A DNA stretch of 64,000 nt from the IMG/VR virus record IMGVR_UViG_3300037420_000246, positions 3,642 through 67,641 of that record; one strand, given 5' to 3'. Under the pieces are notes generated by a model. It did no database searches. It was given only the letters and a program-made list of their open reading frames with translations, and was not told where the DNA came from. Below, one piece after another: positions 47,417-63,474 of this stretch (position 1 is the first letter of the stretch; each line of letters begins with the position of its first letter). The position numbers and the translations under genes are program-made. Source of the DNA: a virus.

Positions 47417-47435
47417 GTAGCTTCGAAAATTTCTC

Positions 47436-47464: not shown

Positions 47465-47512
47465 AATGTCACTGCGTAACATATTGAAGATTCTTAACAA
47501 GGGAGAACTTGC

Positions 47513-49615: not shown

Positions 49616-50194
49616 ATGGAACTTAACACTTGCGTGGGGTACTCAAGCCCACCCCGGCAGACGACAGCCAGAAAGGAGACAATCATGCATGAACTGGTAC
49701 AGTTTTTTGATGAATGGGAGCAAATCATCCCGCAAGACGCCCGTAAAGCGCTTCAGCCTATTGTGGACAAGGCCCGCGCCGTGAGCGAACAGGCGGACGA
49801 GCGGGCGCTGTTTGAGACCGAGTGGAGAATGCTAACGAGGCCGCATTTGTACGATTACAGGACAGATGCACACGGCGATTACAACGACCGCCACCTGTTC
49901 CGGGCATGGCGAATTTGGCAGGCCAGCACGCATGCTCTGCGCGACAGCTACACCGGCAGCACAATGGTGTCCGACCTTCAAGGTCCGAAGATTACCCTGC
50001 GCTATGCAACGAGTGCCCAAGCCGATGCCGCACACGAACTGCTGTGCCGAGTCATCGACGCGGCCGCACCTTTGACAGACGACCGTATTTTGCAGATTGC
50101 TGCTGAGCAGGATTATGGAGACGAAGACCCAAAATGCATCCTCCGACTAGCCAGAGCGTTGATCAGCGCAGCCCTCAACCAACAAAACAAATAA
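49616..50194 (+). CDS. Hypothetical protein encoded in a GC-rich island
   Basis: ATG 49616 with SD GGAGAAG; 192 aa; local GC far above neighbours, so several overlapping spurious ORFs appear in other frames. Confidence 0.5.
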   Translation: MELNTCVGYSSPPRQTTARKETIMHELVQFFDEWEQIIPQDARKALQPIVDKARAVSEQADERALFETEWRMLTRPHLYDYRTDAHGDYNDRHLFRAWRIWQASTHALRDSYTGSTMVSDLQGPKITLRYATSAQADAAHELLCRVIDAAAPLTDDRILQIAAEQDYGDEDPKCILRLARALISAALNQQNK

Positions 50195-50209
50195 AATTCT
50201 TATCAGCCC

Positions 50210-50238
50210 TTGACAGCCAATCTTAAAAGCCTTATGCT
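50210..50238 (+). promoter_or_regulatory. Early promoter TTGACA-N17-TATGCT with conserved downstream TACGTACATGG
   Basis: Preceded by ATAAAATTCTT box; 30 nt upstream of gene 50269. Confidence 0.45.
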
Positions 50239-50268
50239 TACGTACATGGGCCAATAATAGGAGAATAA

Positions 50269-50532
50269 ATGAACGAACAATCTGCAATTGCTGTGCATCC
50301 GGTGCAGCGCAAGCGTGACTACGAGCAAGCATACGCCCCACAAGTTGTGACGATGATGGCATACGAAGTTTACTGTCATGTTTACGCACCCCAAGAGGCT
50401 ATGGTTACTGGCCACTGTCGAGGAGGATTCTCTGCCGGGGAGTTAATTGCCTTCCTGTACGCACACAACTTCCCCAAAACTGAGTGGCGGGAGCGCGTGA
50501 CTGAAGCATTCCGTGGCATGAAAAGTTTGTAA
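50269..50532 (+). CDS. Hypothetical protein
   Basis: 87 aa; SD TAGGAGAATAAATG. Confidence 0.55.
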   Translation: MNEQSAIAVHPVQRKRDYEQAYAPQVVTMMAYEVYCHVYAPQEAMVTGHCRGGFSAGELIAFLYAHNFPKTEWRERVTEAFRGMKSL

Positions 50533-50542
50533 GGAGAACAAA

Positions 50543-50710
50543 ATGAACAACACAAACTCAAAGTTAGTAGCTGCCTACATCAGAACGCATTTTGTACGCT
50601 TCGAAATGGGCGATTTTATGGGTGTGGACGAATCTCCATCGCTCGACAAGCTGCTCAATTTGGAAGCTCTAGTTAAGATGGCTATTGAGGAAAAGCGGAG
50701 GGAAGGATAA
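50543..50710 (+). CDS. Hypothetical small protein (55 aa)
   Basis: Not in track; SD AAGGAGAACAAAATG; stop overlaps next ATG. Confidence 0.4.
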   Translation: MNNTNSKLVAAYIRTHFVRFEMGDFMGVDESPSLDKLLNLEALVKMAIEEKRREG

Positions 50711-50901
50711 TGAAAGATTACACCATCCCAACCCACGAACAAAACAACGTCATGCATTCTTTTTGGACAATGTTACGTGAGTGTGAAACGAAGGCTGAGA
50801 ATGAAAACGACATCATTTTGAAGAACTGGGTGGCTCAATGGTATCAACAATGGAATCGTATCACTGGCGATAACCTTTTGCCTAGTTGGGAGAAGAAATG
50901 A
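50710..50901 (+). CDS. Hypothetical protein
   Basis: 63 aa ORF. Confidence 0.5.
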   Translation: MKDYTIPTHEQNNVMHSFWTMLRECETKAENENDIILKNWVAQWYQQWNRITGDNLLPSWEKK

Positions 50902-51092
50902 AATACCAAATTAACGCCCAAATCACTGTGTCATGCTGGACAGAAGTGGAAGCAGAGTCTGAGGAAGAAGCATTGGAAATTGCAAAAGACAGGTGTGTTG
51001 CCGACATCCACATTGACGGCTCATTTCCTGAAGATGAGTGCTGGCATATCGCTGTAGACGGGGAGCCTGTAAACATTCGCGTGGGAGAATAA
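50898..51092 (+). CDS. Hypothetical acidic protein
   Basis: ATG 50898 (ATGA overlap); track starts at TTG 50886. Confidence 0.5.
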   Translation: MKYQINAQITVSCWTEVEAESEEEALEIAKDRCVADIHIDGSFPEDECWHIAVDGEPVNIRVGE

Positions 51093-51331
51093 TGAACAAC
51101 GCCCTCCGCAGCCTTTCAGCCATCTTCACGCTCTGTATCTCGCTCTTCCCTGTTGCGCTCTACGGAGGCGTGCTAGGCGTCACAATTACAGTGGTGTTGT
51201 TCTTTGCAGGCTTGATGTTGTTCGTGCGAGCGATGGAAAAGAATTCCGCCTTGTGGAATGTTGTGATGATTTACGGGACGTTCTTTGGCACTATGGCGAC
51301 TATTATTGTGTTGTGGACATGGGGAATTTGA
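51092..51331 (+). CDS. Small three-TM membrane protein
   Basis: ATG 51092 (TAATG overlap), 79 aa; track ORF 51038 starts inside upstream gene. Confidence 0.5.
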   Translation: MNNALRSLSAIFTLCISLFPVALYGGVLGVTITVVLFFAGLMLFVRAMEKNSALWNVVMIYGTFFGTMATIIVLWTWGI

Positions 51332-51393
51332 GGAGAATAATATGGATGATTCCGCCCACCAATTTACTGTGTGACATGGAAAGCCTGTACAGC

Positions 51394-51422
51394 TTGACAT
51401 TGCAAAGGCGCTCTCATAGCTT
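51394..51422 (+). promoter_or_regulatory. Promoter-like element TTGACA-N17-TAGCTT
   Basis: In 200-nt non-coding gap upstream of lipoprotein gene. Confidence 0.3.
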
Positions 51423-51531
51423 TTATTTTCTCTCTGTTCCAAATCAATTCCGGCCTCATCAAGTCGCATATTGTGGCATTGGCACTAGGCTTTTGCCATA
51501 GGTGCCTTTCCTCAACCCATTGGAGTGATGT

Positions 51532-52653
51532 ATGAGAAACTTGCTTTTAAGTGCATCCGTTGCGGCTTGCCTTTTAGCCTGTGGTGCGCGTGATGCCGGA
51601 ATTACTACTGCCTCTAGCACGCCCGCAGTATATCTCACAGGTGCAACGCTGTTCAAGGCTGGTTATTCGTTGCCTGTAGGAGCGCAAAGCTTAACAACAG
51701 GTAGTGGCTTTCGGTATTCAGTTGGTGTCAATGCAGACACTGGCTATTACGTCCTGTGCGGGAAACGTGGTAATGCTGAAGAAAAATGCTTGCCAATCGT
51801 TCCTGTCAAACTGATGCAAGGAATTTCTGTTCGTGCAGATATAGCGCTAGATGGGGAATCGCCCGTTGTCTGGTTTGAACAAAGCGAAAACCTAACGCCC
51901 GATGCAAGCGCTCGTCAATCGTTCGCCATAGGCGTATTTAATGAGCGCTTTTGGGATGTGTTAGAGCAATTCAATAGCGCCAATGTGGCAATGCCTACGA
52001 ATGCTGCAATGCGAAGCGGTCGGGAATCACGCACTGCGCCCCAAAAAGACGACTCAGGAAGTTCCGGCGAATCTGCCGACCCTGCCTCTGGTAGAACGCC
52101 ATACATGCAAACGGTTGATGTCCCCGGCGAGCGACCTGATCCTGAATATCCGTCGCCATATGATCCGCTACCGCCTCCCGATCTTTCGCCAACAGATAAT
52201 CCCGGCTCTAGTGGCGGGGAGGACCCCGGCAATGCATATTCTGATGAAAACCGTTATGAACGAATGGCTGCAAACTGTTTGCCCGCACCGGGCCGTCCTG
52301 CTGCAATAGCGTGCGTGTATGTTCCCGGTAAGCGGCCTCCGCCAATAGACCCGCTCAACCCACCTACAACTGATGTCCCACCACCACCGGGAAGCCACCC
52401 TGAATACGACTGGTGCGGCCTGTTGGGGATCGGTTGCACCGTGGGAGGGCAGCGCCCACCTGATCCGTCTGAGGATATACGGCGTGCAATGTGCAATAGT
52501 CGCTATATCGTCAAAGGTGCAGTGTGCGTGTATAAGCGTCTGATTGGCGAGTTTAACGAAATTGACGAGCAAAAATGTTTGGACATGCAATATAACGCGC
52601 TCGGACAATGCCTGACGAAAGAAACACCATTACTCGCGCCAGCGAAGCAATAG
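51532..52653 (+). CDS. Lipoprotein, Pro-rich linker and Cys-rich C-terminal domain (candidate superinfection-exclusion/surface protein)
   Basis: Signal peptide with lipobox LLAC (MRNLLLSASVAACLLACGA); proline-rich middle; GC-rich gene. Confidence 0.6.
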   Translation: MRNLLLSASVAACLLACGARDAGITTASSTPAVYLTGATLFKAGYSLPVGAQSLTTGSGFRYSVGVNADTGYYVLCGKRGNAEEKCLPIVPVKLMQGISVRADIALDGESPVVWFEQSENLTPDASARQSFAIGVFNERFWDVLEQFNSANVAMPTNAAMRSGRESRTAPQKDDSGSSGESADPASGRTPYMQTVDVPGERPDPEYPSPYDPLPPPDLSPTDNPGSSGGEDPGNAYSDENRYERMAANCLPAPGRPAAIACVYVPGKRPPPIDPLNPPTTDVPPPPGSHPEYDWCGLLGIGCTVGGQRPPDPSEDIRRAMCNSRYIVKGAVCVYKRLIGEFNEIDEQKCLDMQYNALGQCLTKETPLLAPAKQ

Positions 52654-52663
52654 CTGCAAATAG

Positions 52664-52685
52664 AGGCCCGACATCGGGCCTTTTA
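52664..52685 (+). terminator. Rho-independent terminator
   Basis: AGGCCCG-ACAT-CGGGCCT followed by TTTT. Confidence 0.6.
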
Positions 52686-52751
52686 GTCGAACCATTTTAG
52701 GAGAAATTGTGATATGATTGGTAATAATTATTTGAAGAGCAGGGAGAGATT

Positions 52752-52991
52752 ATGCCAGTAAGCGCAGCACATTCCGCAGCAACAAGCCCTCATGCAATCG
52801 CCCTCAGAGGGGCTATAGGGGCTGCTCATGGCACAGGCGGCAGTAGTGCCTACACAGAGCAACCTGCACGAGTTAGCGAGCCTCCTGTTGAGAGGCTACC
52901 TGACGAGTTTGGATTTGCAGTTGTTGTAGCAATCGTGTTTTGTGTAATGTTCTTGATTTTTGTTTTGGCATTTTATGAGGAAGAAAGTTGA
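52752..52991 (+). CDS. Hypothetical protein with C-terminal TM anchor
   Basis: 79 aa; FAVVVAIVFCVMFLIFVLAF. Confidence 0.45.
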   Translation: MPVSAAHSAATSPHAIALRGAIGAAHGTGGSSAYTEQPARVSEPPVERLPDEFGFAVVVAIVFCVMFLIFVLAFYEEES

Positions 52992-52992
52992 C

Positions 52993-53166
52993 ATGGAATA
53001 CCACCAAATCAAAGAAGGAATGCAAGTACTCGACAAACTCCCTCAGTTTGGATATGGTGAAGTTGTTAAGGTGAACAAGACAACTGTGTGGGTGAAGTTT
53101 TATAACTACCGTGACAAGCTAATCATTTACGACTTGGACCATATTCAGTTTTTGGAGAGGGTGTAA
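52993..53166 (+). CDS. Hypothetical small protein (57 aa)
   Basis: ATG 52993 with SD GAGGAAG; track ORF 52960 begins inside upstream gene. Confidence 0.4.
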   Translation: MEYHQIKEGMQVLDKLPQFGYGEVVKVNKTTVWVKFYNYRDKLIIYDLDHIQFLERV

Positions 53167-53224
53167 AGTTCATTTCCAAACTGTATAAAATTCTAGGAAA
53201 TGAATCTGGATTCCTTTGCCGATA

Positions 53225-53254
53225 ATTTCAAACCTATGTGACCAACGAGGGGGC
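53225..53254 (+). repeat. Conserved 30-nt motif copy 2 (ATTTCAAACCTATGTGACCAACGAGGGGGC)
   Basis: 28/30 identical to 45498-45527; opens a second ~440-bp non-coding island. Confidence 0.6.
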
Positions 53255-53535
53255 ATGTGAATCCCCTGAAGCTGTCAGAGACAAGGCTTTTCTAGGGACA
53301 TGCAGCATTTGTAGAGGGGCTGGCGAGAGCAGCCCTTTTGTTTGCCTGTAAAGCTGCGGATAGAATGCATGTTTGCTCTGGCTAGGGCTTATCGGCAGGC
53401 TTTACAGGGATTGTCTGTAGCTCCGATGTGTCTAGTATGAGGCAGGAGGGAGGCTTACGAACGGCAGGAACACTAATAAAAACAACGAGATAAGTGTTAT
53501 ATACAACTATTTTCTAACTTTCTTGCTACTTTCTC

Positions 53536-53564
53536 TTGACTCTGCCTGTTAGCTGGCCTAAGAT
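53536..53564 (+). promoter_or_regulatory. Promoter TTCTCTTGACTC-N17-TAAGAT
   Basis: TTGACT 53536-53541, 17-nt spacer, TAAGAT 53559-53564; 40 nt upstream of gene 53604. Confidence 0.45.
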
Positions 53565-53603
53565 GGACACATCAAACATACATTCTTACGGAGGGATGCA
53601 AGC

Positions 53604-53936
53604 ATGACACACAAGGAATTTCAAGCAATCTTGCAGCGTGCTATTTCATCCGGTGCCATCCACCATGCGGCGCAATTGATGAACACTGGTAATTTTAAAA
53701 AGCTTGAGGGCATCACCGTCGGAAACATGGGTGACATCACATATGCGAATCCGGACAAGCTGAACATTCGCGCACATGCTAGCAAGAAAGCTCGCATCAC
53801 TCACAAATTTGTATTGTTCTACACCTACCAAGGGCAACACAAAGTAATCTCGGCTGGCAGTCTTGAAAGCATTGCCGGATATGTCGAATATAGAGAGCGT
53901 ATCTATGCATTCGAAACAGAAACCTTTGGGGTCTAA
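53604..53936 (+). CDS. Hypothetical protein
   Basis: 110 aa; SD GGAGGG. Confidence 0.55.
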   Translation: MTHKEFQAILQRAISSGAIHHAAQLMNTGNFKKLEGITVGNMGDITYANPDKLNIRAHASKKARITHKFVLFYTYQGQHKVISAGSLESIAGYVEYRERIYAFETETFGV

Positions 53937-53937
53937 C

Positions 53938-54135
53938 ATGAAAGATTGGATTCTTCGTTGGACTAACCTCTCTGGTGACACGTTCGAAGGCTCTTACACA
54001 GAGCATGAAGCTAAAATTTTGTTTGACTACTATCAGGAAACGAATCAGCAAGTAGAGCTTGTGCCTCCGACTGGTAATTGGTACACTGTCTATAATCGCA
54101 CGCTCAATAGAATTTTTGATTGCTGGAAAAACTAA
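53938..54135 (+). CDS. Hypothetical protein
   Basis: ATG 53938; 65 aa; in-frame shorter form of track ORF 53863. Confidence 0.45.
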   Translation: MKDWILRWTNLSGDTFEGSYTEHEAKILFDYYQETNQQVELVPPTGNWYTVYNRTLNRIFDCWKN

Positions 54136-54147
54136 CAGGAGCAACAA

Positions 54148-54405
54148 ATGAGCCATAAAACTTGGACGTTCTTTCCTCTCTCTGCTACACGTTACAGCGA
54201 ACCGGCAGAGCATGACAAAGTAACTGGAGAGAAAATCTCCGATGCTTGCGCGCTGTACTACGGAAAGCAACCGGGCGTAGGCTGGCGCTTTGTTGTGTTG
54301 TGCGACGGTACATACTCGCAAGTTGGCGCTACATACGCAACAAAAGATGAATTGCTGGCAGATTTGCCGCGATACGCTGCCACTTGGTCTAAAAATTGGA
54401 GGTAA
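54148..54405 (+). CDS. Hypothetical protein
   Basis: 85 aa ORF. Confidence 0.55.
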   Translation: MSHKTWTFFPLSATRYSEPAEHDKVTGEKISDACALYYGKQPGVGWRFVVLCDGTYSQVGATYATKDELLADLPRYAATWSKNWR

Positions 54406-54407
54406 AC

Positions 54408-54521
54408 ATGAACCACATCACGCGCGCTGCATACAGAGCTTGGAAAGAGAGCCTCACGTCTGTTCCTTTTGATGAGTATTTGGAATATAATAAACGTGCC
54501 GGTCGCTATTGGGGAGCATAA
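54408..54521 (+). CDS. Hypothetical small protein (37 aa)
   Basis: Not in track; SD GGAGG. Confidence 0.3.
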   Translation: MNHITRAAYRAWKESLTSVPFDEYLEYNKRAGRYWGA

Positions 54522-54522
54522 A

Positions 54523-54738
54523 ATGAGCAAACACACTTTCATAGGTAAATTCGGAACACAATATGTCACAGATCGCTTTATGGCTGGCCCTGCCCTACAT
54601 GCTGGCTACTGGTGGAACGATGAGGCTCCGCTAGGTGCAGGCTTTAGCGTATGGCGTGAAGTGGTGCGACCACACAACACAGACGGAAAACTGTTCGGGT
54701 ATGATGAGCAGGAATTCATGGCGAAGCAATACAAATAA
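54523..54738 (+). CDS. Hypothetical Trp-rich protein
   Basis: ATG 54523, 71 aa. Confidence 0.5.
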   Translation: MSKHTFIGKFGTQYVTDRFMAGPALHAGYWWNDEAPLGAGFSVWREVVRPHNTDGKLFGYDEQEFMAKQYK

Positions 54739-54746
54739 GGCACATC

Positions 54747-55004
54747 ATGGCTAAACTCACTGCCGCGCAAGTGCGCTCAATTGAAACTGTTCTGTACCAT
54801 CTTGAGCGCGCGAACAAATACCTTCTTTCGGAAAATGTTGTATTGGCTATCCGCAACGATCGGGCGACGACTACGCTTGATTATTCCAACGTTGTAGGAA
54901 AGGCTTTGACGCCTGTAGACAAAGAGATTGGATCGGATATTGCTGGCTTAAGCATGGGGATTGAGTATCTAAAAAACTACCTAGCGTTTAACGCTAAACA
55001 ATGA
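54747..55004 (+). CDS. Hypothetical protein
   Basis: 85 aa ORF followed by terminator. Confidence 0.55.
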   Translation: MAKLTAAQVRSIETVLYHLERANKYLLSENVVLAIRNDRATTTLDYSNVVGKALTPVDKEIGSDIAGLSMGIEYLKNYLAFNAKQ

Positions 55005-55007
55005 CAC

Positions 55008-55033
55008 AGCCGCCTTCGGGCGGCTTTTCTTTT
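55008..55033 (+). terminator. Rho-independent terminator
   Basis: AGCCGCC-TTCG-GGCGGCT followed by TTTTCTTTT. Confidence 0.65.
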
Positions 55034-55182
55034 GTCTGCATTCTTACAAACCTTTCGCGCAGGGTTGGATTAGTCAAACCGTAGGTTAGCCGTGTTCCGC
55101 TCTTCGTCTGATACAAGTACAGCATATCCTACTCCGCCAACAAACGCAAGCATTATTTTCACAAGATTGTATAAAATTCTTC

Positions 55183-55210
55183 TTGATTGTTCCGTATCTT
55201 AGTCTAAGCT
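55183..55210 (+). promoter_or_regulatory. Early promoter TTGATT-N16-TAAGCT with shared GTTCCGTATCTTA spacer and CACACAACGGAG 5'UTR
   Basis: Preceded by TATAAAATTCTT box; spacer shared with 58335 promoter; UTR shared with 58390 and 61815. Confidence 0.4.
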
Positions 55211-55237
55211 ATAGAGACACACAACGGAGACGCCATC

Positions 55238-55444
55238 ATGACCAAGCAACAATCCTACCTTGCACAGAACAGCATAGATCGTGCTGAAGGCTACAGCGCA
55301 TGCGTTGCCTGTATAGCTGCTAACGGACTGGCAATAGCTCGTGCAATGCTTCGTGCTGAAGGAGTCAGAGAGCGGCATACGTTCGGTTATTGGTGCGGCT
55401 GGCTCCACGCTTGTGCGTGTTGCGTAGGTGCTACATCGAAATAA
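55238..55444 (+). CDS. Hypothetical Cys-rich protein
   Basis: 68 aa; CVAC...CGWLHACACC. Confidence 0.5.
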   Translation: MTKQQSYLAQNSIDRAEGYSACVACIAANGLAIARAMLRAEGVRERHTFGYWCGWLHACACCVGATSK

Positions 55445-55449
55445 AATTC

Positions 55450-55477
55450 TTGACAGAGTCTGTTAGTGTGCTATGCT
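55450..55477 (+). promoter_or_regulatory. Early promoter TTGACA-N16-TATGCT
   Basis: Preceded by AATAAAATTCT box right after stop codon. Confidence 0.4.
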
Positions 55478-55509
55478 GTGTTGCATAACAATTTTATGAG
55501 GAGCCTAAC

Positions 55510-55608
55510 ATGTCCCGCTACATTCCAGCCGTGTTTTACGTTTCCGTGTTTGTTGGGCTGTGCTATGCTTTTGCGTATGCCTGTGATACACAGCAATTCA
55601 TCGTCTAA
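55510..55608 (+). CDS. Small membrane peptide (32 aa)
   Basis: Not in track; SD GAGGAG; one TM. Confidence 0.3.
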   Translation: MSRYIPAVFYVSVFVGLCYAFAYACDTQQFIV

Positions 55609-55628
55609 TATTTAAAGGAATACACAAA

Positions 55629-55826
55629 ATGGCAACCTCTCATATTGACTTTACTTGGCAAACACCGGAATCTTCAGATGATGTGTTGTTCTCGCTAGAG
55701 CAGGCACTACTGCAAGCTATCCCGCACATTGGCGGAATGAATGTCAATCCTGCATGGGAAGCTAAGTATTCTCATCAAAAGATGCGTGTAACACTGACTG
55801 TTGAAATTATCGAAGATTTTAAATAA
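55629..55826 (+). CDS. Hypothetical protein
   Basis: 65 aa ORF. Confidence 0.5.
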   Translation: MATSHIDFTWQTPESSDDVLFSLEQALLQAIPHIGGMNVNPAWEAKYSHQKMRVTLTVEIIEDFK

Positions 55827-55839
55827 AGAGGGTGACAAA

Positions 55840-56067
55840 ATGAAAAACCTTCGTCATTTCACTGTCACGGCTGATCGTGCAACAGGTGAGTGGCTAGGCG
55901 TGCCACACTTTACAGGCCGCTACGTAGACGCGGAGAAATGGGTGAGGGGCTGCACATGGTCAAAGTATTATGACACGTTTGAGCGTCCTTTACCGTCTGA
56001 CACAACTCTTGACCGTGATGGAGTTGGAACGGAAACCTGTGCAATCACGGTCGTATGGCAAGACTAA
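55840..56067 (+). CDS. Hypothetical protein
   Basis: ATG 55840 (SD AGAGGGTG); 75 aa. Confidence 0.5.
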   Translation: MKNLRHFTVTADRATGEWLGVPHFTGRYVDAEKWVRGCTWSKYYDTFERPLPSDTTLDRDGVGTETCAITVVWQD

Positions 56068-56178
56068 GGCAGCTTGTATATAACACTTCTTTACTAAAAT
56101 CTCTTGCAAATTGTAGATAAGCCTGTTACGATGTGCTCATGTTCAACGAAACGCCCTACAGGGCAGAGAAAGAAATCC

Positions 56179-56493
56179 ATGCAAGCATTCAACATCAAAC
56201 GCGGTAGGAAAATCATTGACACTGTATTTTACAATGACTCTCCGAAAGAGTCGGCAGCAGATGTCGAGAAAGCTTTAAAGGCTCGCGGAGAAATGCCGGA
56301 TGATTGCACGGTGACAAAAGTAAGGCGCAAGCTGAAGGATGAATTTGAGATTCAAGGTAATTACGGACATGGCTGGGATGTTGAATGCACCGAAGAAACC
56401 CGCAAGGAAGCTAATCAGCGGCTGAAGGAATACCGCGAGAATGCGGGAACTATTGGGCAGCATCGCATTGTGCATCGTCGGGTTCCGGTTTAA
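56179..56493 (+). CDS. Hypothetical protein
   Basis: ATG 56179 in frame with track ORF 56104; 104 aa. Confidence 0.5.
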   Translation: MQAFNIKRGRKIIDTVFYNDSPKESAADVEKALKARGEMPDDCTVTKVRRKLKDEFEIQGNYGHGWDVECTEETRKEANQRLKEYRENAGTIGQHRIVHRRVPV

Positions 56494-56516
56494 CTAGCTC
56501 AAAAGGACAAAACAAA

Positions 56517-56726
56517 ATGGGCACTAACCATAAAGATTTAGCGAAGAGAACTGCAACGTACCTTCAAAAATTGCAGCAATACCAAGAATTGCAAGGGCTG
56601 TGCGCTCATCCTAGGTTTAATGTTGACAGAGACGTTGCTTTGTACGCACAGAAACAAAGTTTAGACAAATGGCTAAAGGAAGAGGCGGAAGACCTTTGGG
56701 CATTAGGTGTGAACGTCTATAAGTAA
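56517..56726 (+). CDS. Hypothetical protein
   Basis: 69 aa; preceded by AAAGGACAAAACAAAATG cassette. Confidence 0.5.
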   Translation: MGTNHKDLAKRTATYLQKLQQYQELQGLCAHPRFNVDRDVALYAQKQSLDKWLKEEAEDLWALGVNVYK

Positions 56727-56746
56727 TTATCAAAGGACAAAACAAA

Positions 56747-56962
56747 ATGACAACCTACAAAAACCCTTGGCACAAACGGTTTGAACCTATGTACGGACCA
56801 GCAGAATACATCACAAACGTTCAACCGGAGGAATACAAAGGTTTTCTGATCTATGAGCGTATCGACGAGGCTGTGTGGGACGTTGTGAAAGATGGTGCAT
56901 GTGTCACACAACGGGCAGGAATCAACGGTGCAAAACGGTATATTGATGAGGTAGCAGAATGA
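56747..56962 (+). CDS. Hypothetical protein
   Basis: 71 aa; preceded by second copy of AAAGGACAAAACAAAATG cassette. Confidence 0.5.
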   Translation: MTTYKNPWHKRFEPMYGPAEYITNVQPEEYKGFLIYERIDEAVWDVVKDGACVTQRAGINGAKRYIDEVAE

Positions 56963-57126
56963 ATACTTACGAAATCAAATTTCACGGACGGACTAAAAAC
57001 GCCATCGGCATTACATACTGGATAACAGATACGGTGGAAGTCGAAGACGAGAAAGCGGCAATTCTGAAGCTTTACGATAAATACGAGCATATCAGCCGCC
57101 CTGTTGTCAAACTCTTGAGTAAATGA
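56959..57126 (+). CDS. Hypothetical small protein (55 aa)
   Basis: Not in track; ATGA overlap. Confidence 0.35.
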   Translation: MNTYEIKFHGRTKNAIGITYWITDTVEVEDEKAAILKLYDKYEHISRPVVKLLSK

Positions 57127-57127
57127 A

Positions 57128-57295
57128 ATGAACATAGGCGACTACACAACACTTGTCAATCTTGTCCTTTCCGAACAGAAACAGCCGTTCCTGCTCAATG
57201 CTGACGAAAAGGAAGTCGTTAAGCGCTGCTACAAGAACGGCTTCACTGTGGCGGAATGTGTCCATGTAATTGTTCTTAGCAGGGTGGGAGACTGA
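57128..57295 (+). CDS. Hypothetical small protein (55 aa)
   Basis: Not in track. Confidence 0.35.
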   Translation: MNIGDYTTLVNLVLSEQKQPFLLNADEKEVVKRCYKNGFTVAECVHVIVLSRVGD

Positions 57296-57297
57296 TC

Positions 57298-57486
57298 GTG
57301 GCTGATGTAACAATGTGCCCCGGTGCAAATAACAATAAGAATTGCCCGATGAAAGACAATTGCTACAGGTACACGGCTAAGCCTGCTCCGCTGATGCAAA
57401 GCTGGTTTATCGTTATGCCTCTGGTGACAGTGGGGCTCACTGACAGATGCAATCATCATCTGCCATTGGAAAGGGTGAGGAAATGA
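57298..57486 (+). CDS. Hypothetical Cys-rich protein
   Basis: 62 aa; GTG start (ATG at 57313 in frame). Confidence 0.45.
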   Translation: MADVTMCPGANNNKNCPMKDNCYRYTAKPAPLMQSWFIVMPLVTVGLTDRCNHHLPLERVRK

Positions 57487-57710
57487 TGGATCAATTAGAG
57501 AAATTGGACGATGAAGCAATAGACGATCTTCGCCAACTTGAAAAAGAAATGTTCATGCAAGGTGACAGTAGGTCAAATGTTCTTCGGCGTGTGCTAGATT
57601 TACTCTGGATTAAAGAGATTATAGACGATGAATATGAACCGCCGAAGACTCGGTCTGATCCTGTTTTGAAAAAGGTTAAGTCTAATAAAAACCTGCAAGG
57701 GGTAAGATAA
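57483..57710 (+). CDS. Hypothetical acidic protein
   Basis: ATGATG at 57483 overlapping upstream stop. Confidence 0.5.
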   Translation: MMDQLEKLDDEAIDDLRQLEKEMFMQGDSRSNVLRRVLDLLWIKEIIDDEYEPPKTRSDPVLKKVKSNKNLQGVR

Positions 57711-58030
57711 TGAGCCGATACACAGAGGCACAGCTACACGAAATGATTGATCAAATTAACAGGCTGACATGCGCGCCAGACACAATGACTGTGCCAGTGC
57801 GAGAAGGTGTGCGGGTAGTATTCAATGTAGGCCACTACTACATGAAACGCAGTAGGAATGGATACATTCTATATAGGATTACTTCTGACGATGGCGAGTG
57901 TTCGGATGTGTTCGGCCAAGGGTGGATGACTAAGCCTGAGTTAGGGGCTATCCTACAAGCGTATGCGCTAGGGCTGGAGGAGGCCAGACGGTGTGTTGTC
58001 AAGCACAATCAAGCGATGGCGTGGGCGTAA
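57710..58030 (+). CDS. Hypothetical protein
   Basis: 106 aa ORF. Confidence 0.55.
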   Translation: MSRYTEAQLHEMIDQINRLTCAPDTMTVPVREGVRVVFNVGHYYMKRSRNGYILYRITSDDGECSDVFGQGWMTKPELGAILQAYALGLEEARRCVVKHNQAMAWA

Positions 58031-58033
58031 TGT

Positions 58034-58282
58034 ATGGGAAATTATAGCAAAACACGAACAGGCTCATTCAATGACAATCTAGCACGACTAGAGGTTGGCG
58101 AATACCTTTGGATTGAGACGACAGTCGAGGAGTATGCATCCGTACAGCGCAGAGTTACGGCTAGGTCTAGGTTTCCTGAGACAATGCAACACATGCGGTT
58201 TTTCTCTCAAGGGTTCACATGTATAAGCAATAGCAAGGTTGGAGACATACGAATAGCCGTCAGAATAGAACGTGTAGCATAA
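58034..58282 (+). CDS. Hypothetical protein
   Basis: 82 aa ORF. Confidence 0.5.
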   Translation: MGNYSKTRTGSFNDNLARLEVGEYLWIETTVEEYASVQRRVTARSRFPETMQHMRFFSQGFTCISNSKVGDIRIAVRIERVA

Positions 58283-58334
58283 GAGCAACATTAACGTTGT
58301 AAACGTGCCACACAATAAAAAGATTAAGAATCGC

Positions 58335-58363
58335 TTGCAATGTTCCGTATCTTACGGTATGCT
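58335..58363 (+). promoter_or_regulatory. Early promoter TTGCAA-N17-TATGCT + TCTGTACATGG downstream box
   Basis: Part of ~90-bp promoter/5'UTR cassette duplicated at 61745-61837. Confidence 0.45.
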
Positions 58364-58412
58364 TCTGTACATGGGCTGACGGCAAGCCTACAACACAACA
58401 CAGGAGCATCCA

Positions 58413-58616
58413 ATGAGCTACTACTCGCCAGAACTGAAGGCACAAGCAGAAGAAATAATAGAAAAGTGCTGGGATTACCATCCAGACGCAAAGCTTCCAG
58501 ATGGCTTGATTCTGGCAGCATATGAGGATGGGATTTGGGTGTGCGATACAATGGGAGAGTGTGATATGTTCAAATTCAAAAAGCTTGGGCAAATCACTTC
58601 GGAAACTTGGGCATAA
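58413..58616 (+). CDS. Hypothetical protein
   Basis: 67 aa; SD CAGGAG. Confidence 0.55.
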   Translation: MSYYSPELKAQAEEIIEKCWDYHPDAKLPDGLILAAYEDGIWVCDTMGECDMFKFKKLGQITSETWA

Positions 58617-58617
58617 C

Positions 58618-58746
58618 ATGCGAACAATAACAACATTTCTCCTGCTCAGCTTTCTCTCCTTCTGCCTTTGGGGAGCAGTGCATACGGATGAGGCTGGGAG
58701 CACAATAGAGAAGGCTTGGCAGGGAATAATACGGAAGATCAAATGA
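58618..58746 (+). CDS. Small membrane protein (42 aa)
   Basis: ATG 58618; TM FLLLSFLSFCLWGAV. Confidence 0.35.
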   Translation: MRTITTFLLLSFLSFCLWGAVHTDEAGSTIEKAWQGIIRKIK

Positions 58747-58955
58747 AACATAAAGACATCCTCCCCGGCGACCGGGTCACCTACCTTGACATCATCCACG
58801 CAACTGTCATGCACTCAAGCGCCAATGGTGTAGTGATTACATATTGGGGCAGAGGGAAACGCATGGGAGAGCAGATTCAGGAGAGAGTTAGCGCCAGATG
58901 GCTGGAAAAGGGCTGGAAAGCTATTGATGAATTTGAAAAGGGAGTGGCGAAATGA
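58743..58955 (+). CDS. Hypothetical protein
   Basis: ATG 58743 (ATGA overlap), 70 aa. Confidence 0.5.
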   Translation: MKHKDILPGDRVTYLDIIHATVMHSSANGVVITYWGRGKRMGEQIQERVSARWLEKGWKAIDEFEKGVAK

Positions 58956-59260
58956 GCACGTTCAATAAGCATACGCCGGGTCCGTTCCTCGTTGAAGGAA
59001 CCACAGTTTATGCCTTGGAATTCGATAGCTGGAGAGGTGGAAAGGAACTAATGCGCAATCGTATCTATGCCAATGTTCAAGGGTATAGGGACACTCCTAA
59101 AGAAGAGCTTGAAGCCGTCGCAACCCTGTTTGCAGCAGCGCCAGAGCTTTTGGAGGCTTTGGAAAAGCTTATTGATGCAGTTTCCAGAAACTCTCTCAGC
59201 GATGTTATATTGTGCAAGCACAGGGCGGTTGATCTTATTGCCAAAGTGACAGGAGAATAA
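58952..59260 (+). CDS. Hypothetical protein
   Basis: 102 aa ORF. Confidence 0.55.
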   Translation: MSTFNKHTPGPFLVEGTTVYALEFDSWRGGKELMRNRIYANVQGYRDTPKEELEAVATLFAAAPELLEALEKLIDAVSRNSLSDVILCKHRAVDLIAKVTGE

Positions 59261-59261
59261 T

Positions 59262-59465
59262 ATGACGCTCTCAGCAGACGCACGGTTTTACATGGAGAAA
59301 CGCGAAGAGATTTCTTTCAAAGAGCGTACATTAGTTGATAACATCATGGTTGAGCTTTTCGATGAAGCAATGCGGGCAGGGATTCCCGCAGCTAAGGACG
59401 ACAGAGCGGCAGAATTGGAAGCAGCAATCATCCGTTTCATTATTGAGAGCAGGGAGAAAGCATAA
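59262..59465 (+). CDS. Hypothetical protein
   Basis: 67 aa ORF. Confidence 0.5.
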   Translation: MTLSADARFYMEKREEISFKERTLVDNIMVELFDEAMRAGIPAAKDDRAAELEAAIIRFIIESREKA

Positions 59466-59743
59466 TGCCAGATGTTTATGAGCACATAATGATCAGTATT
59501 TATCAGTTTGCTGTGAATAACGTAAGAGAGTATATTCGGGGCGAAGAGAATCAGAAGGCTCTTGCACAAATGGACAAGAGCATGAACGCTTTTGATACTG
59601 CTCAAGTGCTGGCTGTGGCATTCATGAAGAGGCAAGAGGATGTGTTGGCGGATTTGATTGGCATCACTTCCGGCGCAGACAGGCAGCGACGCCAAATTGA
59701 CGAAGTGGCAAAGAAAATAACAGCACAGAGAGAGAAAGCATAA
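59465..59743 (+). CDS. Hypothetical protein
   Basis: 92 aa ORF. Confidence 0.55.
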   Translation: MPDVYEHIMISIYQFAVNNVREYIRGEENQKALAQMDKSMNAFDTAQVLAVAFMKRQEDVLADLIGITSGADRQRRQIDEVAKKITAQREKA

Positions 59744-60168
59744 TGTCTAATAAGTCCATTCGTCAATTCCTTGCTGATTTCGATGCAGGGAAGTTTGAAG
59801 ATAGATCAAGAGAAACACAGATTGAGGCTGGCTGGTATGACTGGTTTTGTGACGACAACGAGTTAGTTGTCAAAACAACGGAACTGGCAGGCAAGCTAAA
59901 AGAGATTATCAACTCTCCGAAGATTGACCAAGACAAGCATTATGTGTTCTTTAAAAACAATTGCCCGCTTGATGGAGATTTGTATGATGATTTCCGCATT
60001 TGTGACATTGAAAGCGGGAATGTCATCTACACAGTGGTTCCTGCAAGCGGGTACACTAAAAAGAAAAACTTTGCTGAAGTGTGGGGACAGGAGAATGGAT
60101 TCAATGAACCGCTAGCAGAGGGAAGCTGGCAGGATGTGTTAGAGTGGTTCAAGCCTAAAACGCACTAG
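59743..60168 (+). CDS. Hypothetical protein
   Basis: 141 aa ORF. Confidence 0.55.
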   Translation: MSNKSIRQFLADFDAGKFEDRSRETQIEAGWYDWFCDDNELVVKTTELAGKLKEIINSPKIDQDKHYVFFKNNCPLDGDLYDDFRICDIESGNVIYTVVPASGYTKKKNFAEVWGQENGFNEPLAEGSWQDVLEWFKPKTH

Positions 60169-60179
60169 AACGCCCCACA

Positions 60180-60200
60180 GGCGTCTTTCTATCCTTCTGG
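60180..60200 (+). terminator. Weak terminator-like hairpin
   Basis: ACGCC-CCACA-GGCGT followed by CTTTCT. Confidence 0.3.
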
Positions 60201-60337
60201 CTGGAGCCTGTAAAACAGTCTCCCTTGCTCGATTGAGTCTCGCAAGTAGGTAGACATCAACACAGGGCTGAAAACGTCTCTATGGGGCTGTAAACATGTT
60301 TAAACGATATGTCCATTACATGAACAGGTGAGGAAGA

Positions 60338-60511
60338 ATGAACAACACATTACCAACACCATATGATGCAGGGTATGATCATTTCCTGAACGGCGGAACA
60401 TTGGATTATGAGCCAATCAACAACGAAGCTGATAGGCAGTTTCGGGCAGGGTGGGAACAGGCGAGAATTGATGATTTTGTGCATGCCATAGTATTTGTGA
60501 GGGAAGAATGA
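60338..60511 (+). CDS. Hypothetical small protein (57 aa)
   Basis: Not in track; SD AGGTGAGGAAGAATG. Confidence 0.4.
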   Translation: MNNTLPTPYDAGYDHFLNGGTLDYEPINNEADRQFRAGWEQARIDDFVHAIVFVREE

Positions 60512-60864
60512 AACTAACAGACAAAGGGCTTTCCGAATATTGGAACAGTTTGCTAGATCGGAGAATGCCTGAAGGGCGCGAAGTGGAACGCCTTATTAGT
60601 GTGATGAAAGGCTTTTACTTTAGCTATTGCATCCATAATGAAACTCTCAATCAAAACCACGAGCAAGGGCTGATTGAGTTTCACAGCAGCAAACGCCCAT
60701 ACGGAAACAAAGATATTCCTGCATCGATTGCATTTAATCTTGGATGGGACTACAAGCGGCAATTATGTTATTATGCATTGCCTGATGAAATTGAGGCAAT
60801 TGCAGAAGATTTGCACAAGAAGGTTTTGGAAGAGCTTAAAAAGAATACGTCTCTTTATGTGTGA
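60508..60864 (+). CDS. Hypothetical protein
   Basis: 118 aa ORF. Confidence 0.55.
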   Translation: MKLTDKGLSEYWNSLLDRRMPEGREVERLISVMKGFYFSYCIHNETLNQNHEQGLIEFHSSKRPYGNKDIPASIAFNLGWDYKRQLCYYALPDEIEAIAEDLHKKVLEELKKNTSLYV

Positions 60865-60873
60865 GGGGAGACA

Positions 60874-61080
60874 ATGAGCCGAAACAAACGAGAAGGGCGC
60901 TATGCTGGGAAGTTTAAAGGGTATGAAAATAAGAGTCGTCATCGTCCCACAGGGTTAGATGGCTCTGCTCGTATTTTCTCGTGCAAGCCAGCTCGGCGGT
61001 ATGGATTGCAAAGTAGTTTGCAGCCTATTTATGATTTACTGTTGCAAAGTTTTCAACAGTGTGTTAGCTTATCAGCATGA
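60874..61080 (+). CDS. Hypothetical basic protein
   Basis: 68 aa ORF. Confidence 0.45.
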   Translation: MSRNKREGRYAGKFKGYENKSRHRPTGLDGSARIFSCKPARRYGLQSSLQPIYDLLLQSFQQCVSLSA

Positions 61081-61107
61081 TAAATCACAACAAGAAAGGA
61101 ATGCGCT

Positions 61108-61539
61108 ATGTATAAACGTCTCGTCAGCTTTATTCTCGTTTCAGCCTCTCTTGCAGCATGTGGTGGAGGAGGAACTAACGTTCCTGATAATTCCCAAGCC
61201 ATCAAGGATGCACTAGGCGGCATCACTGTTCCGGGTGGAGGCACAAACACTCCAGCATATACAGGGGCTGTTGTAGCTGTTGACGGCGTAGGTATTGGCT
61301 ACATTTCGGGCAAGGATGAACGCTCTGTTGTGGCGAATGCTGTGGCTCCTATTGTCGCCAATGTTGCACAGAATCAAGCTTTGTACAACAAGCTTCTGTC
61401 AGATGCGGGGCTGAACGTCACAGTGTTTGGCGACATCATTGGACATTCCAGCATCACAGGAGCGCCATTGTATGCGCCTGATAGCCATTACACTGTGAAG
61501 CTGGCGAAGGATGGGACATTGGGGATTGTGAAGAAATGA
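61108..61539 (+). CDS. Lipoprotein (Gly/Ala/Val-rich)
   Basis: Signal peptide with lipobox LAAC (MYKRLVSFILVSASLAACGGGG); 143 aa. Confidence 0.6.
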   Translation: MYKRLVSFILVSASLAACGGGGTNVPDNSQAIKDALGGITVPGGGTNTPAYTGAVVAVDGVGIGYISGKDERSVVANAVAPIVANVAQNQALYNKLLSDAGLNVTVFGDIIGHSSITGAPLYAPDSHYTVKLAKDGTLGIVKK

Positions 61540-61561
61540 CGAGGAACAGGACACGAAGAGG

Positions 61562-61590
61562 GAGCCGCAAGGCTCCTTTGTTGTTTCTGC
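61562..61590 (+). terminator. Rho-independent terminator
   Basis: GGAGCC-GCAA-GGCTCC followed by TTTGTTGTTT. Confidence 0.55.
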
Positions 61591-61667
61591 TCAAGGTATG
61601 TCGGAACACATTCCACTATTCTGTGCTCGTGACAAGCCATTGTCATTTCCAAGTAATGACCTCCTTT

Positions 61668-61699
61668 TGGGCCGGACCATACCATCCGGCCTTTTTCTT
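61668..61699 (+). terminator. Rho-independent terminator
   Basis: GGCCGGA-CCATACCA-TCCGGCC followed by TTTTTCTTTT. Confidence 0.6.
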
Positions 61700-61758
61700 T
61701 TGTGCAACTACAACGCACGTTGCACGGATGCCACACATAAAAATGTTATGAAATGCTC

Positions 61759-61786
61759 TTGCATTCTTATTTGAGTGTGGTATGCT
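61759..61786 (+). promoter_or_regulatory. Early promoter TTGCAT-N16-TATGCT + TCTCTACATGG downstream box
   Basis: Second copy of the promoter/5'UTR cassette. Confidence 0.45.
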
Positions 61787-61837
61787 TCTCTACATGGCAG
61801 GTCAACAGAGCCGAGAGGCACACAACAGGAGAACATC

Positions 61838-62029
61838 ATGGTCAAACTCGTCAACGCAAAGGCTGCACAAAAATTCCACGTAAGCACAGCCACAGATGAT
61901 TGCACCGTGGAAGCTGGCGATACAGTGGTAGTTATCGAAAAGGTTGACTTGCACACATATCGGATAGAAGTAAAGAACGGTATGCGCTGCATTGTGAACG
62001 AAGACCTATTGATTTTCAATCAATGCTAA
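61838..62029 (+). CDS. Hypothetical protein
   Basis: ATG 61838 with SD CAGGAG downstream of predicted TSS; track ORF 61775 would start inside the promoter. Confidence 0.5.
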   Translation: MVKLVNAKAAQKFHVSTATDDCTVEAGDTVVVIEKVDLHTYRIEVKNGMRCIVNEDLLIFNQC

Positions 62030-62798: not shown

Positions 62799-63115
62799 GA
62801 ATGCACATCAAATACCCGCTTTAAGCGGGGTTTCTATTATCTATGATTATCGTTGCACTCTTGCACCACAAAAATTAGTCTTACTCGCTGGCGCTCGCGC
62901 TTAAAGCATTGCACACAAACCAATCTTATCTATTCGTTGCACTGCGCGAGCCGTAGGCGAGAGGAGGGCAACACAGAGCGAAGCGATGGTTATCTGTTCC
63001 TCTGTGGAGGCGAAGCCGTAGCAGAGATAAGGTAAGAATGATTGTCTTAAGGATTGAACGTCCTTAAGTTATCTTTTCTCTTATCTATTCTCTTATCTGT
63101 TAGTACGGTAAAAAA

Positions 63116-63184
63116 GCGGGGTTTTGCACCTCTCTAATGCGGGGTTATCAACCTCTCTAAAGCGGGGTTTTGCACTCCTACGAC
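63116..63184 (+). repeat. Tandem 23-bp direct repeats GCGGGGTT(T/A)T(G/C)CA(C)CTCTCTAA(T/A)
   Basis: GCGGGG at 63116, 63139, 63162 (period 23) plus palindromic copies at 62817-62836 and 63197-63216. Confidence 0.55.
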
Positions 63185-63229
63185 ATATCCTAATACCCGC
63201 TTTAAGCGGGGTTTATGCATTCTGTAAGC

Positions 63230-63288: not shown

Positions 63289-63474
63289 ATGCAACTTAAT
63301 CTTAACCCGGAAGTTGCCATCTGGATAGATGCGAACAGAGGCGAACTGTCTAGGCAAAAGTTTATTCTAACTCTTGTCAAGAAAATGATGTTGCAGGATA
63401 CTCAATCTACTAAGGATAACAATGGAAAAAACAATCTCCCCAATGGAGCTATCCACGCTCCTGTGCAAGAGTAA
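63289..63474 (+). CDS. Small DNA-binding regulator, ribbon-helix-helix-like
   Basis: 61 aa; N-terminal beta strand QLNLNPEV then two helices (AIWIDANRGELSRQKFILTLVKKMM); first gene after consensus promoter. Confidence 0.45.
   Translation: MQLNLNPEVAIWIDANRGELSRQKFILTLVKKMMLQDTQSTKDNNGKNNLPNGAIHAPVQE

Follow-up and report, generated by a model that had tools for sequence, protein, structure and literature searches.

The DNA analysed here is a 64,000-nucleotide (nt) stretch of an uncharacterised phage known from metagenomes only (positions 3,642 to 67,641 of IMG/VR virus record IMGVR_UViG_3300037420_000246; hereafter the window, numbered from its first letter), and the subject of this report is a family of promoter-like cassettes that stand in front of its genes. 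The window has a G+C content of ∼ 46% and comprises three gene blocks: a plus-strand block of large genes at ∼ 1–18.4 kilobases (kb), presumed to be virion genes, a minus-strand block at 18.4–44.1 kb, and a plus-strand block of ∼ 70 small genes at 44.1–64 kb. The minus-strand block includes a T7-gp4-like primase-helicase gene (34848–36506, minus strand; assigned from protein matches), the product of which is 45–57% identical to proteins of Pseudaeromonas phage KLEP7, Pseudomonas phage M1 and Acinetobacter (Phab24-type) phages.

A sequence-only reading of the window had proposed at least five early promoters in the small-gene block, each assembled from shared modules. All five sites were found where they had been placed, and each has a −35 hexamer, a 16–17 nt spacer and a −10 hexamer (TAAGCT at one site, TATGCT at the other four), followed by GGAG and an ATG. 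P50210 (50189–50271, plus strand) scores 13.5 in a sigma-70 position weight matrix (PWM) scan and is made up of −35 TTGACA (50210–50215), a 17-nt spacer, −10 TATGCT (50233–50238), a CAT start element (50245–50247) with a predicted +1 at A 50246, AGGAG (50259–50263) and ATG 50269; its AAATAAAATTCTT at 50189–50201 includes the stop codon of the upstream gene (50192–50194). P55183 (55171–55240, plus strand) has ATAAAATTCTT at 55171–55181, −35 TTGATT (55183–55188), a 16-nt spacer including GTTCCGTATCTTA (55189–55201), −10 TAAGCT (55205–55210) and the leader CACACAACGGAG before ATG 55238. P55450 (55439–55512, plus strand; PWM score 12.0), a chimeric promoter, consists of −35 TTGACA (55450–55455), 16 nt, −10 TATGCT (55472–55477), CAT (55484–55486), the leader CATAACAATTTTATGAGGAG and ATG 55510, and here too AAATAAAATTCTT includes a stop codon (55442–55444). 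P58335 (58294–58415, plus strand) begins with an upstream module, ACGTTGTAAACGTGCCACACAATAAAAAG (58294–58322), followed by −35 TTGCAA (58335–58340), a 17-nt spacer including GTTCCGTATCTTA (58342–58354), −10 TATGCT (58358–58363), CAT (58370–58372; predicted +1 at A 58371), AGGAG (58402–58406) and ATG 58413. P61759 and the terminator upstream of it occupy 61669–61840 (plus strand): a hairpin and T-run (61669–61703) precede the upstream module ACGTTGCACGGATGCCACACATAAAAA (61717–61743), part of a 7-base-pair (bp) hairpin GTGCAAC..GTTGCAC, and then come −35 TTGCAT (61759–61764), 16 nt, −10 TATGCT (61781–61786), CAT (61793–61795; predicted +1 at A 61794), a leader that includes ACAACAGGAGAACATCATGG, AGGAG (61827–61831) and ATG 61838.

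The modules shared by these sites were then counted. The upstream box ATAAAATTCTT occurs with no more than one mismatch at 16 sites against 2.1 expected, a number reached in 0 of 100 shuffles. The spacer word thought to be common to the 55183 and 58335 promoters, GTTCCGTATCTTA, has exact copies at just two places, 55189 and 58342, and each copy stops 3 nt short of the −10 hexamer. The 5′ untranslated region reported to be shared by P58335 and P61759 needs rewording, in that the cassettes are homologous but CACAACAGGAG is exact at P61759 only; P58335 has CACAACACAGGAG, and P55183 carries CACACAACGGAG in its place. Similarly, these two cassettes had been described as a duplicated ∼ 90-bp unit, and although their homology is upheld, it is patchy, spans ∼ 115 nt and amounts to 67.5% identity, which does not describe a recent copy. 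Positions 58294–58406 align with 61717–61831 (79 of 117 columns identical; local alignment score 31, compared with 8.2 ± 1.3 in shuffles), with patches at ACGTTG, TGCCACACA, GGTATGCTTCT-TACATGG and ACACAACA..GGAG. From the −10 to +4 the pair is identical at 18 of 19 positions, a level of identity confined to these two homologous cassettes; TATGCTTCTSTACATGG is found at three sites only (50233, 58358 and 61781), even with up to three mismatches. By itself the leader motif CACACAAC-GGAG shows no enrichment (6 sites, 2.9 expected) and is limited to a few related cassettes. An AC-rich leader acting as a genome-wide translational enhancer was also considered and rejected, such pentamers being present at 7 of 120 gene starts against 11.6 expected. 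The upstream box had further been reported at 44229 and 53181; it was located at 44232 and 53185, but not in the promoter context implied, as the former copy sits in a 5′ leader against the Shine–Dalgarno sequence rather than 5′ of a −35 hexamer, and no convincing −35/−10 pair lies downstream of the latter.

Copies are thus present throughout 50188–61837, but the family is not limited to that range: it extends well beyond it, also onto the minus strand, and comprises about 20 promoters on both strands of the window. Across the whole window 12 sites score at least 13 in the PWM scan against 2.7 ± 1.75 in shuffles, the matrix being based on the Escherichia coli consensus, which may not be that of the host. 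Nearly all of these sites lie directly 5′ of a Shine–Dalgarno sequence and ATG on the sense strand, and high-scoring sites follow the strand of their gene block, standing 20–140 nt before the Shine–Dalgarno sequence and ATG. The five flagged sites and ∼ 15 more fit a TTGACA-like −35 and a TATAAT-like −10 (with T−12, A−11 and T−7 kept) set 16–18 nt apart, and intrinsic terminators lie upstream of P47436, P55183 and P61759. These terminators (47389–47419, 55008–55036 and 61669–61703) differ in their GC stems and share an almost identical tail, (C)TTTT(T)CTTTTGT, each before a family promoter, so that the terminators also look modular.

Next, 20 promoter segments, from −60 to the ATG, were compared for shared words, with dinucleotide shuffles and non-overlapping coding segments serving as controls. 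The promoter segments have 24 12-mers in common, compared with 0.38 in the shuffles and 0.67 in the coding controls, and the proposal that the modules recur above chance therefore held. The longest common words are in register with the −35 or the −10 hexamer. They include an 18-mer, AAATAAAATTCTTGACAG, common to P55450 and the minus-strand promoter P28259−; a 16-mer, TAACAATTTTAAGGAG, common to P38629− and P24409−; a 15-mer, TGCATAACAATTTTA, in P55450 and P24409−; a 14-mer, TGTTCCGTATCTTA, in P55183 and P58335; a 13-mer, TTTCTCTTGACTC, in P47436 and P53536; and the word GTACATGGGC in P50210 and P58335. Because the sites combine a strong sigma-70 consensus, a consistent strand and position relative to genes, upstream terminators in some cases and word sharing above controls, the data support the view that the flagged sites are promoter-like and belong to one family built from shared modules.

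The recurrent elements were examined further in a set of 48 promoters from the window and its relatives. Upstream of the −35, A is the commonest base at 5–10 nt, and C stands directly before TTGACA in 32 of the 48. An UP element is an A/T-rich tract, located at ∼ −38 to −59, that binds the C-terminal domains of the RNA polymerase alpha subunits at proximal and distal subsites. The ATAAAATTCTT box occupies the proximal position in P55450 and P28259−, lies 3 nt further 5′ in P55183 and 10 nt further upstream, that is one helical turn, in P50210, and these offsets of 0, 3 and 10 nt would fit proximal and distal UP subsites. It is this box that contains the stop codon of the upstream gene in P50210 and P55450. 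At the other end of the promoter, CAT with its A at the seventh or eighth nucleotide after the −10 is present in 15 of the 48 promoters, where 1.6 would be expected (a count matched in 0 of 5000 shuffles), whereas CAT in other registers is found 0–2 times; the fourth base is G in 12 of the 15. Sigma-70 polymerase prefers to start 7 bp downstream of the −10, at a purine (+1) preceded by a pyrimidine (−1), and pyrimidine-rich discriminators shift starts downstream (PMC5730371); a pyrimidine–purine–pyrimidine (YRY) ‘start element’ has also been described (PMC12641261). The recurrent CAT would be accounted for by this known preference together with the YRY start element.

The sequence-only reading had instead taken a conserved +1 to +15 region as a common operator, antitermination or RNA-processing signal. 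This is not supported. Across the wider family nothing more than CAT (often CATnG) recurs, its A lying 7–8 nt downstream of the −10; TACATGG holds just such a CAT, at a distance of 8 nt. Folding of the leaders is no stronger than that of shuffled sequences (z −0.5 to +1.0), and they are devoid of dyad symmetry. For the 18/19 block of P58335 and P61759 such a reading keeps a small probability.

Comparison with relatives was informative with regard to how the cassettes came to share modules. Near-identical and mosaic relatives (contigs with L numbers below) were found solely as metagenome contigs, through exact-protein look-ups, and distant relatives were reached via homologues of a 226-amino-acid protein. 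Similarity to the mosaic contigs breaks off inside cassettes, including all five of those flagged. At P50210, L035 is identical up to 50256 and then has a different leader and gene. At P55183, similarity to the relatives breaks at 55120, and the L027 orthologue (13469) keeps TTGAnT-16-TAnnCT. At P56104 similarity to L027, L028 and L031 stops at 56163, ∼ 30 nt after the −10. L037 keeps the P58335 cassette alone (58307–58416, ∼ 90% identical), with both flanking genes different, while L027, L044 and L046 are without the upstream gene and their similarity restarts at 58291–58307, the upstream edge of the cassette. For P61759, similarity to L037 likewise starts at the upstream edge (61712–61715). 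Promoter 16287 of L063 has a 20-nt leader, ACAACAGGAGAACATCATGG, identical to that of P61759 and placed before a protein without detectable similarity, in a contig whose homologue of the 226-residue protein is only 48% identical to that of the window.

The clearest case of recombination is P55450, a chimera of two promoters. Its left half resembles L027 P13742 through the −35 and over most of the spacer, and its right half, comprising the −10, leader and ATG, matches L027 P14403 and L037 at ∼ 690; the crossover lies within TGTG(C/G)TATGCTG. In L027, L028 and L031 the two parent promoters are separated by ∼ 950 nt with extra genes. Two further observations point to additional module swapping: a GC hairpin, GCGCCCgacaaGGGCGC, exactly fills the −35/−10 spacer of L063 P16287 (16287–16360), and L027 P13469 and P13742 (13469–13800) have an initial transcribed word, GAAGACTC, that is absent from the window's versions.

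Taken over the region, breaks in similarity fall in 6 of the 12 plus-block cassettes. Cassettes make up 10.7% of the region and hold 8 of 39 distinct breaks once neighbouring ends are collapsed (p = 0.05), or 11 of 47 when every alignment end is counted (p = 0.01).

The explanation that best fits these data, to which we assign a probability of roughly three in four, is that the ∼ 20 units are host-type (sigma-70) promoter and leader cassettes that are related by descent and have been reshuffled by short-homology recombination. Host sigma-70 RNA polymerase would probably read all of them. The A-tract box (A)AATAAAATTCTT in the UP position would contact the alpha C-terminal domains; TTGACA, or a weaker form such as TTGCAA, would serve as the −35; and TATGCT or TAAGCT would serve as the −10, keeping the essential T−12, A−11 and T−7. 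TACATGG would combine the pyrimidine-rich end of the discriminator with a YRY start element (C−1 A+1 T+2), placing the start at an A 8 nt past the −10, and a short, apparently unstructured leader would end in GGAG-N6-ATG. The resemblance among modules would come from common descent of the cassettes and continuing exchange of segments, with probable crossovers in the UP region, in the spacer and −10, and at the Shine–Dalgarno sequence and ATG. Such cassettes could act as portable joints that bring the signals for transcription and translation to any small gene that comes to lie behind them. ‘Early’ timing of the promoters is plausible.

Several points weigh against this explanation. Promoter activity, start sites and timing are inferred from sequence, and the scan assumed that the E. 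coli consensus holds for the host. The relatives are few and some are non-independent. The homology at the P55450 crossover is only ∼ 4–12 nt, and the event may have been illegitimate rather than homology-driven. Enrichment of breaks in cassettes is just ∼ 2-fold, and the majority of breaks fall at promoter-less gene boundaries; cassettes therefore take part in exchange and are not its only or main sites. Finally, the 18/19 block exceeds the 67.5% background of its cassettes and is unaltered in L037, so that an additional constraint may be acting.

One form that such a constraint could take is an operator, in which a phage or host regulator recognises the −10-to-+10 block (TATGCTTCTsTACATGG) or the spacer TGTTCCGTATCTTA and so co-regulates the promoters. 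Besides the identity of the block amid diverged sequence and its constancy in L037, this would explain why two promoters have the same 14-nt spacer word when RNA polymerase ignores spacer sequence, and a small early protein (44816–45259) does weakly match a ‘transcriptional regulator’ PHROG (E 1.2e-5). However, both words lack dyad symmetry, each is present in just two or three of the ∼ 20 promoters, and wider recurrence is limited to CAT/CATnG at the start site. Short-patch recombination, seen directly at P55450, accounts for the identities without a binding protein, and a shared operator is consequently given little weight. A signal acting in the RNA is considerably less probable again. Here the 5′ AUGG... 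would be an antitermination or nuclease-processing site, or a 5′-terminal AUG recruiting ribosomes to a mini-open reading frame (mini-ORF) that would stabilise or regulate early transcripts. Three transcripts would start AUGG if the predicted A is the start, opening mini-ORFs of M-G-stop (P58335), M-G-Q-stop (P50210) and 29 codons (P61759), but neither the length nor the sequence of these is conserved, and the leaderless mini-ORF reading was rejected on that ground. The leader folds, at z −0.5 to +1.0, are like those of shuffles, with no common hairpin, and the window has no Rfam match. Moreover, in other CAT-start promoters +3 is C or A and not G, so a 5′ AUG is not general. The lowest probability of all falls to pure convergence, that is, independent selection for optimal UP, −35, −10, start and Shine–Dalgarno sequences with neither homology nor exchange. 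Short modules (AAAATTCTTGACA, CAT, GGAG) are expected from selection for strong promoters, and an unrelated IMG/VR phage contig, L053, has AAATAAAATTCTTGACAG in a promoter-like context. Nevertheless, pure convergence is largely refuted by identical 13–18-mers in segments whose sequence RNA polymerase does not recognise (for instance the spacers, the leaders and the −75 to −45 module), by the significant 115-nt alignment of P58335 with P61759, by the three-way chimera at P55450, and by an identical 20-nt leader before unrelated genes.

The remaining alternatives turn on a difference between the gene blocks. In the plus block (44–64 kb) promoters tend to have a TAnGnT-like −10, a 16–17 nt spacer and a CAT start, and in the minus block (18–44 kb) a TAnAAT −10, G after the −10, a 17–18 nt spacer and no CAT. 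Within the window 2 of 12 plus-block and 7 of 7 minus-block promoters have a −10 ending in AAT (p = 7e-4), and a CAT start is present in 7 of 12 and 0 of 7, respectively; with relatives included, AAT endings number 5 of 32 against 14 of 15, counts that are inflated by orthologues. The two styles may be temporal or strength classes, or may reflect separate descent of the two sets. These systematic differences in −10 and CAT could denote a distinct promoter class served by a phage-encoded factor, with CTTGCAA/T as −35, TATGCT as −10 and CAT forming a temporal class as opposed to the consensus TTGACA/TAnAAT of the replication-block promoters, and GCTTGCAA recurs in P58335, P56104, L027 P14403 and L027 P19799. 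Yet every promoter still obeys sigma-70 rules (TTG, 16–18 nt, TAnnnT), perfect TTGACA promoters also stand in the plus block, and a scan of ten proteins revealed no sigma, MotA-like or AsiA-like protein. Given that orthologous promoters inflate the counts and that shared cassette descent explains the TTGCAA recurrence, this class is even more doubtful than an operator. A broader proposal keeps the cassettes and adds the switch: cassettes would be actively exchanged, moving small genes within and between diverged phages of this non-T4 lineage, and the plus/minus signatures would also encode a temporal switch exploited by a phage factor. The weak TAnGnT −10, UP box and CATnG of the plus block would then be set against TAnAAT, G after the −10 and no CAT in the minus block, and the factor would block the contacts of alpha or of sigma region 4. 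We consider this combination unlikely, while according it a better chance than any of the other alternatives.

The closest known counterparts are the promoter-early stem-loop (PeSL) cassettes of T4-like phages (Arbiol et al., 2010, PMC2839356; Comeau et al., 2014, PMC4122927). In PeSLs the preceding gene often ends, with its stop codon, inside the AT-rich upstream region; experiments have demonstrated promoter activity, terminator activity and mini-circles; and deletion between two flanking cassettes leaves a chimeric cassette (PMC2839356; PMC4122927). The cassettes of the window resemble PeSLs in having a repeated sigma-70-like promoter with an AT-rich 5′ region that ends at the Shine–Dalgarno sequence and ATG of a small ORFan, in being concentrated in a variable, ORFan-rich part of the genome, and in being tied to insertions, deletions and replacements between close relatives; recombination of two flanking cassettes into one chimera is exactly the P55450 situation. 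They differ in that the phage is not T4-like, its best protein matches being to non-T4 phages at ∼ 45–57% identity, and in that an integral stem-loop is missing from P50210, P55183, P55450 and P58335, leaving P61759 as the only one of the flagged five to have one. Stem-loops accompany P61759, P47436, P63230, P28259−, P18180− and L063 P16287 in the family, some as upstream terminators (P61759, P47436) and some as inverted repeats spanning promoter elements (P28259−, P18180−). In addition, the cassettes are known from sequence alone and their enrichment for breaks is modest. They are PeSL-like cassettes of a non-T4 phage, mostly without a stem-loop, and fall outside the PeSLs as defined.

The promoters also resemble lambda PL/PR, T7 A1/A3 and T5 N25, with a near-consensus −35, a 16–18 nt spacer and an upstream A/T tract. 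Those coliphage early promoters start at the A of CAT, and here a start at the same A, 7–8 nt after the −10, is predicted. Unlike them, the −10 is often TATGCT or TAAGCT and not TATAAT, and identical words are common to several promoters, pointing to exchange beyond a same consensus. For modular phage evolution, conserved ‘linker’ sequences at gene boundaries have been proposed, and cluster K mycobacteriophages have start-associated sequences. Short words directly 5′ of the start codons of unrelated genes, such as ACAACAGGAGAACATCATGG in the window and L063, are comparable to these; however, the words described here belong to complete promoter and leader units, occur in few copies, and a genome-wide single consensus was not found in the window. 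If the descent-and-exchange explanation is true, promoter-cassette gene shuffling would extend past the T4-like phages in which it was first described, and P55450 with its two parent promoters would be a concrete example from uncultured phage populations. The result would give a promoter, start-site and leader map with which to annotate an uncharacterised phage group, and a caution against reading conserved words around +1 as operators by default. No new mechanism is opened; it would be known phage genome plasticity in a new lineage.

The other members of the family are distributed as follows. The PWM scan places promoters at 1023, 44190, 50210 and 63230 on the plus strand and at 44121, 38629, 34838, 33380, 28259 and 24409 on the minus strand, with weaker promoters at 46545, 47436, 49555, 53536, 55183, 55450, 56104, 58335 and 61759 and at 18180 (minus strand). 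A divergent pair at 44056–44260, both leaders of which have AAGGAGGAATGT, has orthologous pairs in L061 and L063; it consists of P44190 (plus strand; TTGACA-17-TACAAT; score 14.7), whose leader holds the ‘ATAAAATTCT-like’ box at 44232, and P44121 (minus strand; TTGACA-18-TAGAAT; score 13.4). P46545 (46545–46687, plus strand) has TTAAAATTTTTC-TTGTGT-17-TATAGT, a CAT start at 46579–46581 and a ∼ 105-nt leader before the gene for the 226-residue protein, and its orthologues in L061, L063 and L065 keep TTGAC(G/T)-17-TAT(G/T)AT and CACAT(G/C)G. At 47389–47515 (plus strand) a terminator (47389–47406, tail TTTTTCTTTTGT) is followed by P47436, GAAAATTTCTC-TTGACT-17-CAAGAT. P53536 (53536–53606, plus strand; score 12.1) has TTGACT-17-TAAGAT, a CAT start and the leader ACATTCTTACGGAGG, with an orthologue at L063 19119, and P56104 (56104–56165, plus strand) has CTAAAATCTC-TTGCAA-17-TACGAT and a CAT start. 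A MotA box lies ∼ 12 nt from the −10; GCTTGCAA was considered as such a box and rejected on spacing, being 18 nt away.

On the minus strand, P28259− (28197–28285; score 13.4) is AAATAAAATTCTTGACAG-18-TAGAAT, with a 9-bp inverted repeat, TCTAGAGGG..CCCTCTAGA, bracketing the UP-like box and −35. P24409− (24347–24409; score 15.8) is TTGACA-18-TATAAT with the leader GTGCATAACAATTTTAAGGAGG, and P38629− (38555–38629; score 13.4; orthologue at 2840 on the minus strand of L061) is TTGACA-18-TAGAAT with a 5′ hairpin, GGCTTTTCT..AGAAGCC, and the leader TAACAATTTTAAGGAG. P18180− (18143–18180), near the switch between plus and minus gene blocks, has TTGACG-17-TACAAT inside an 11-bp perfect inverted repeat, ACGAAGGGCAT..ATGCCCTTCGT, that runs from the −35 to past the −10; a stem-loop over the promoter is a PeSL-like arrangement.

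A nucleotide search with 50–62 kb against 50,697 phage records gave zero matches, as did tblastn with a 373-amino-acid early protein. A metagenome-contig scan using the same protein gave nothing, whereas exact-protein look-ups did retrieve contigs. In exact scans of IMG/VR, TATGCTTCTNTACATGG had 26 single matches, none related in the region of the flagged sites and a few being distant T7-like helicase genes; AAATAAAATTCTTGACAG had 5 matches, all unrelated, and TTGCAATGTTCCGTATCTTAC had zero. The phage group is therefore absent from the collection scanned. In the window no transfer RNA gene was found and no Rfam family matched.

Several further features of the window were observed. A 351-residue protein encoded at 40414–41469 (minus strand) matches Pfam Gad1 (Gabija anti-defence 1; E 8.8e-63), so an anti-Gabija gene is carried by the phage. 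Two gene-poor stretches of ∼ 450 nt, at 45445–45900 and 53167–53603, both carry ATTTCAAACCT(G/A)TGT(C/G)ACCAACGAGGGGGC and CA(C/A)GGCTTTTCT; their folding z values are −3.9 (45480–45760) and −1.7 (53205–53480), and Rfam at a permissive threshold gave nothing credible for these two long non-coding stretches, which could be non-coding RNAs or protein-binding regions. At 46237–46308 a 24-nt unit, CTACGACAGAGCTTGTCGCAAAAT, is repeated three times in tandem, every copy holding an inverted repeat, CGACAG..TTGTCG; the array is within an ORF for 57 residues (46217–46390) that has no Pfam match.

An iteron field (62811–63225; considered together with 63422–63931) lies just 5′ of P63230 (63230–63291, plus strand; TTGACA-17-TACAAT with TG before the −10; score 14.7). 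Its core, A(A/T)GCGGGGTT, is present as five direct repeats, three of them as tandem 23-nt units (63113–63181), and the field also contains two copies of AATACCCGCTTTAAGCGGGGTTT (62811 and 63192), each with the palindrome CCCGCTTTAAGCGGG, and three of TCTTATCTATTC. Downstream of it lies a gene for a 169-residue HTH_36/lambda-O-like replication initiator, and the field and this gene are probably the replication origin and its initiator.

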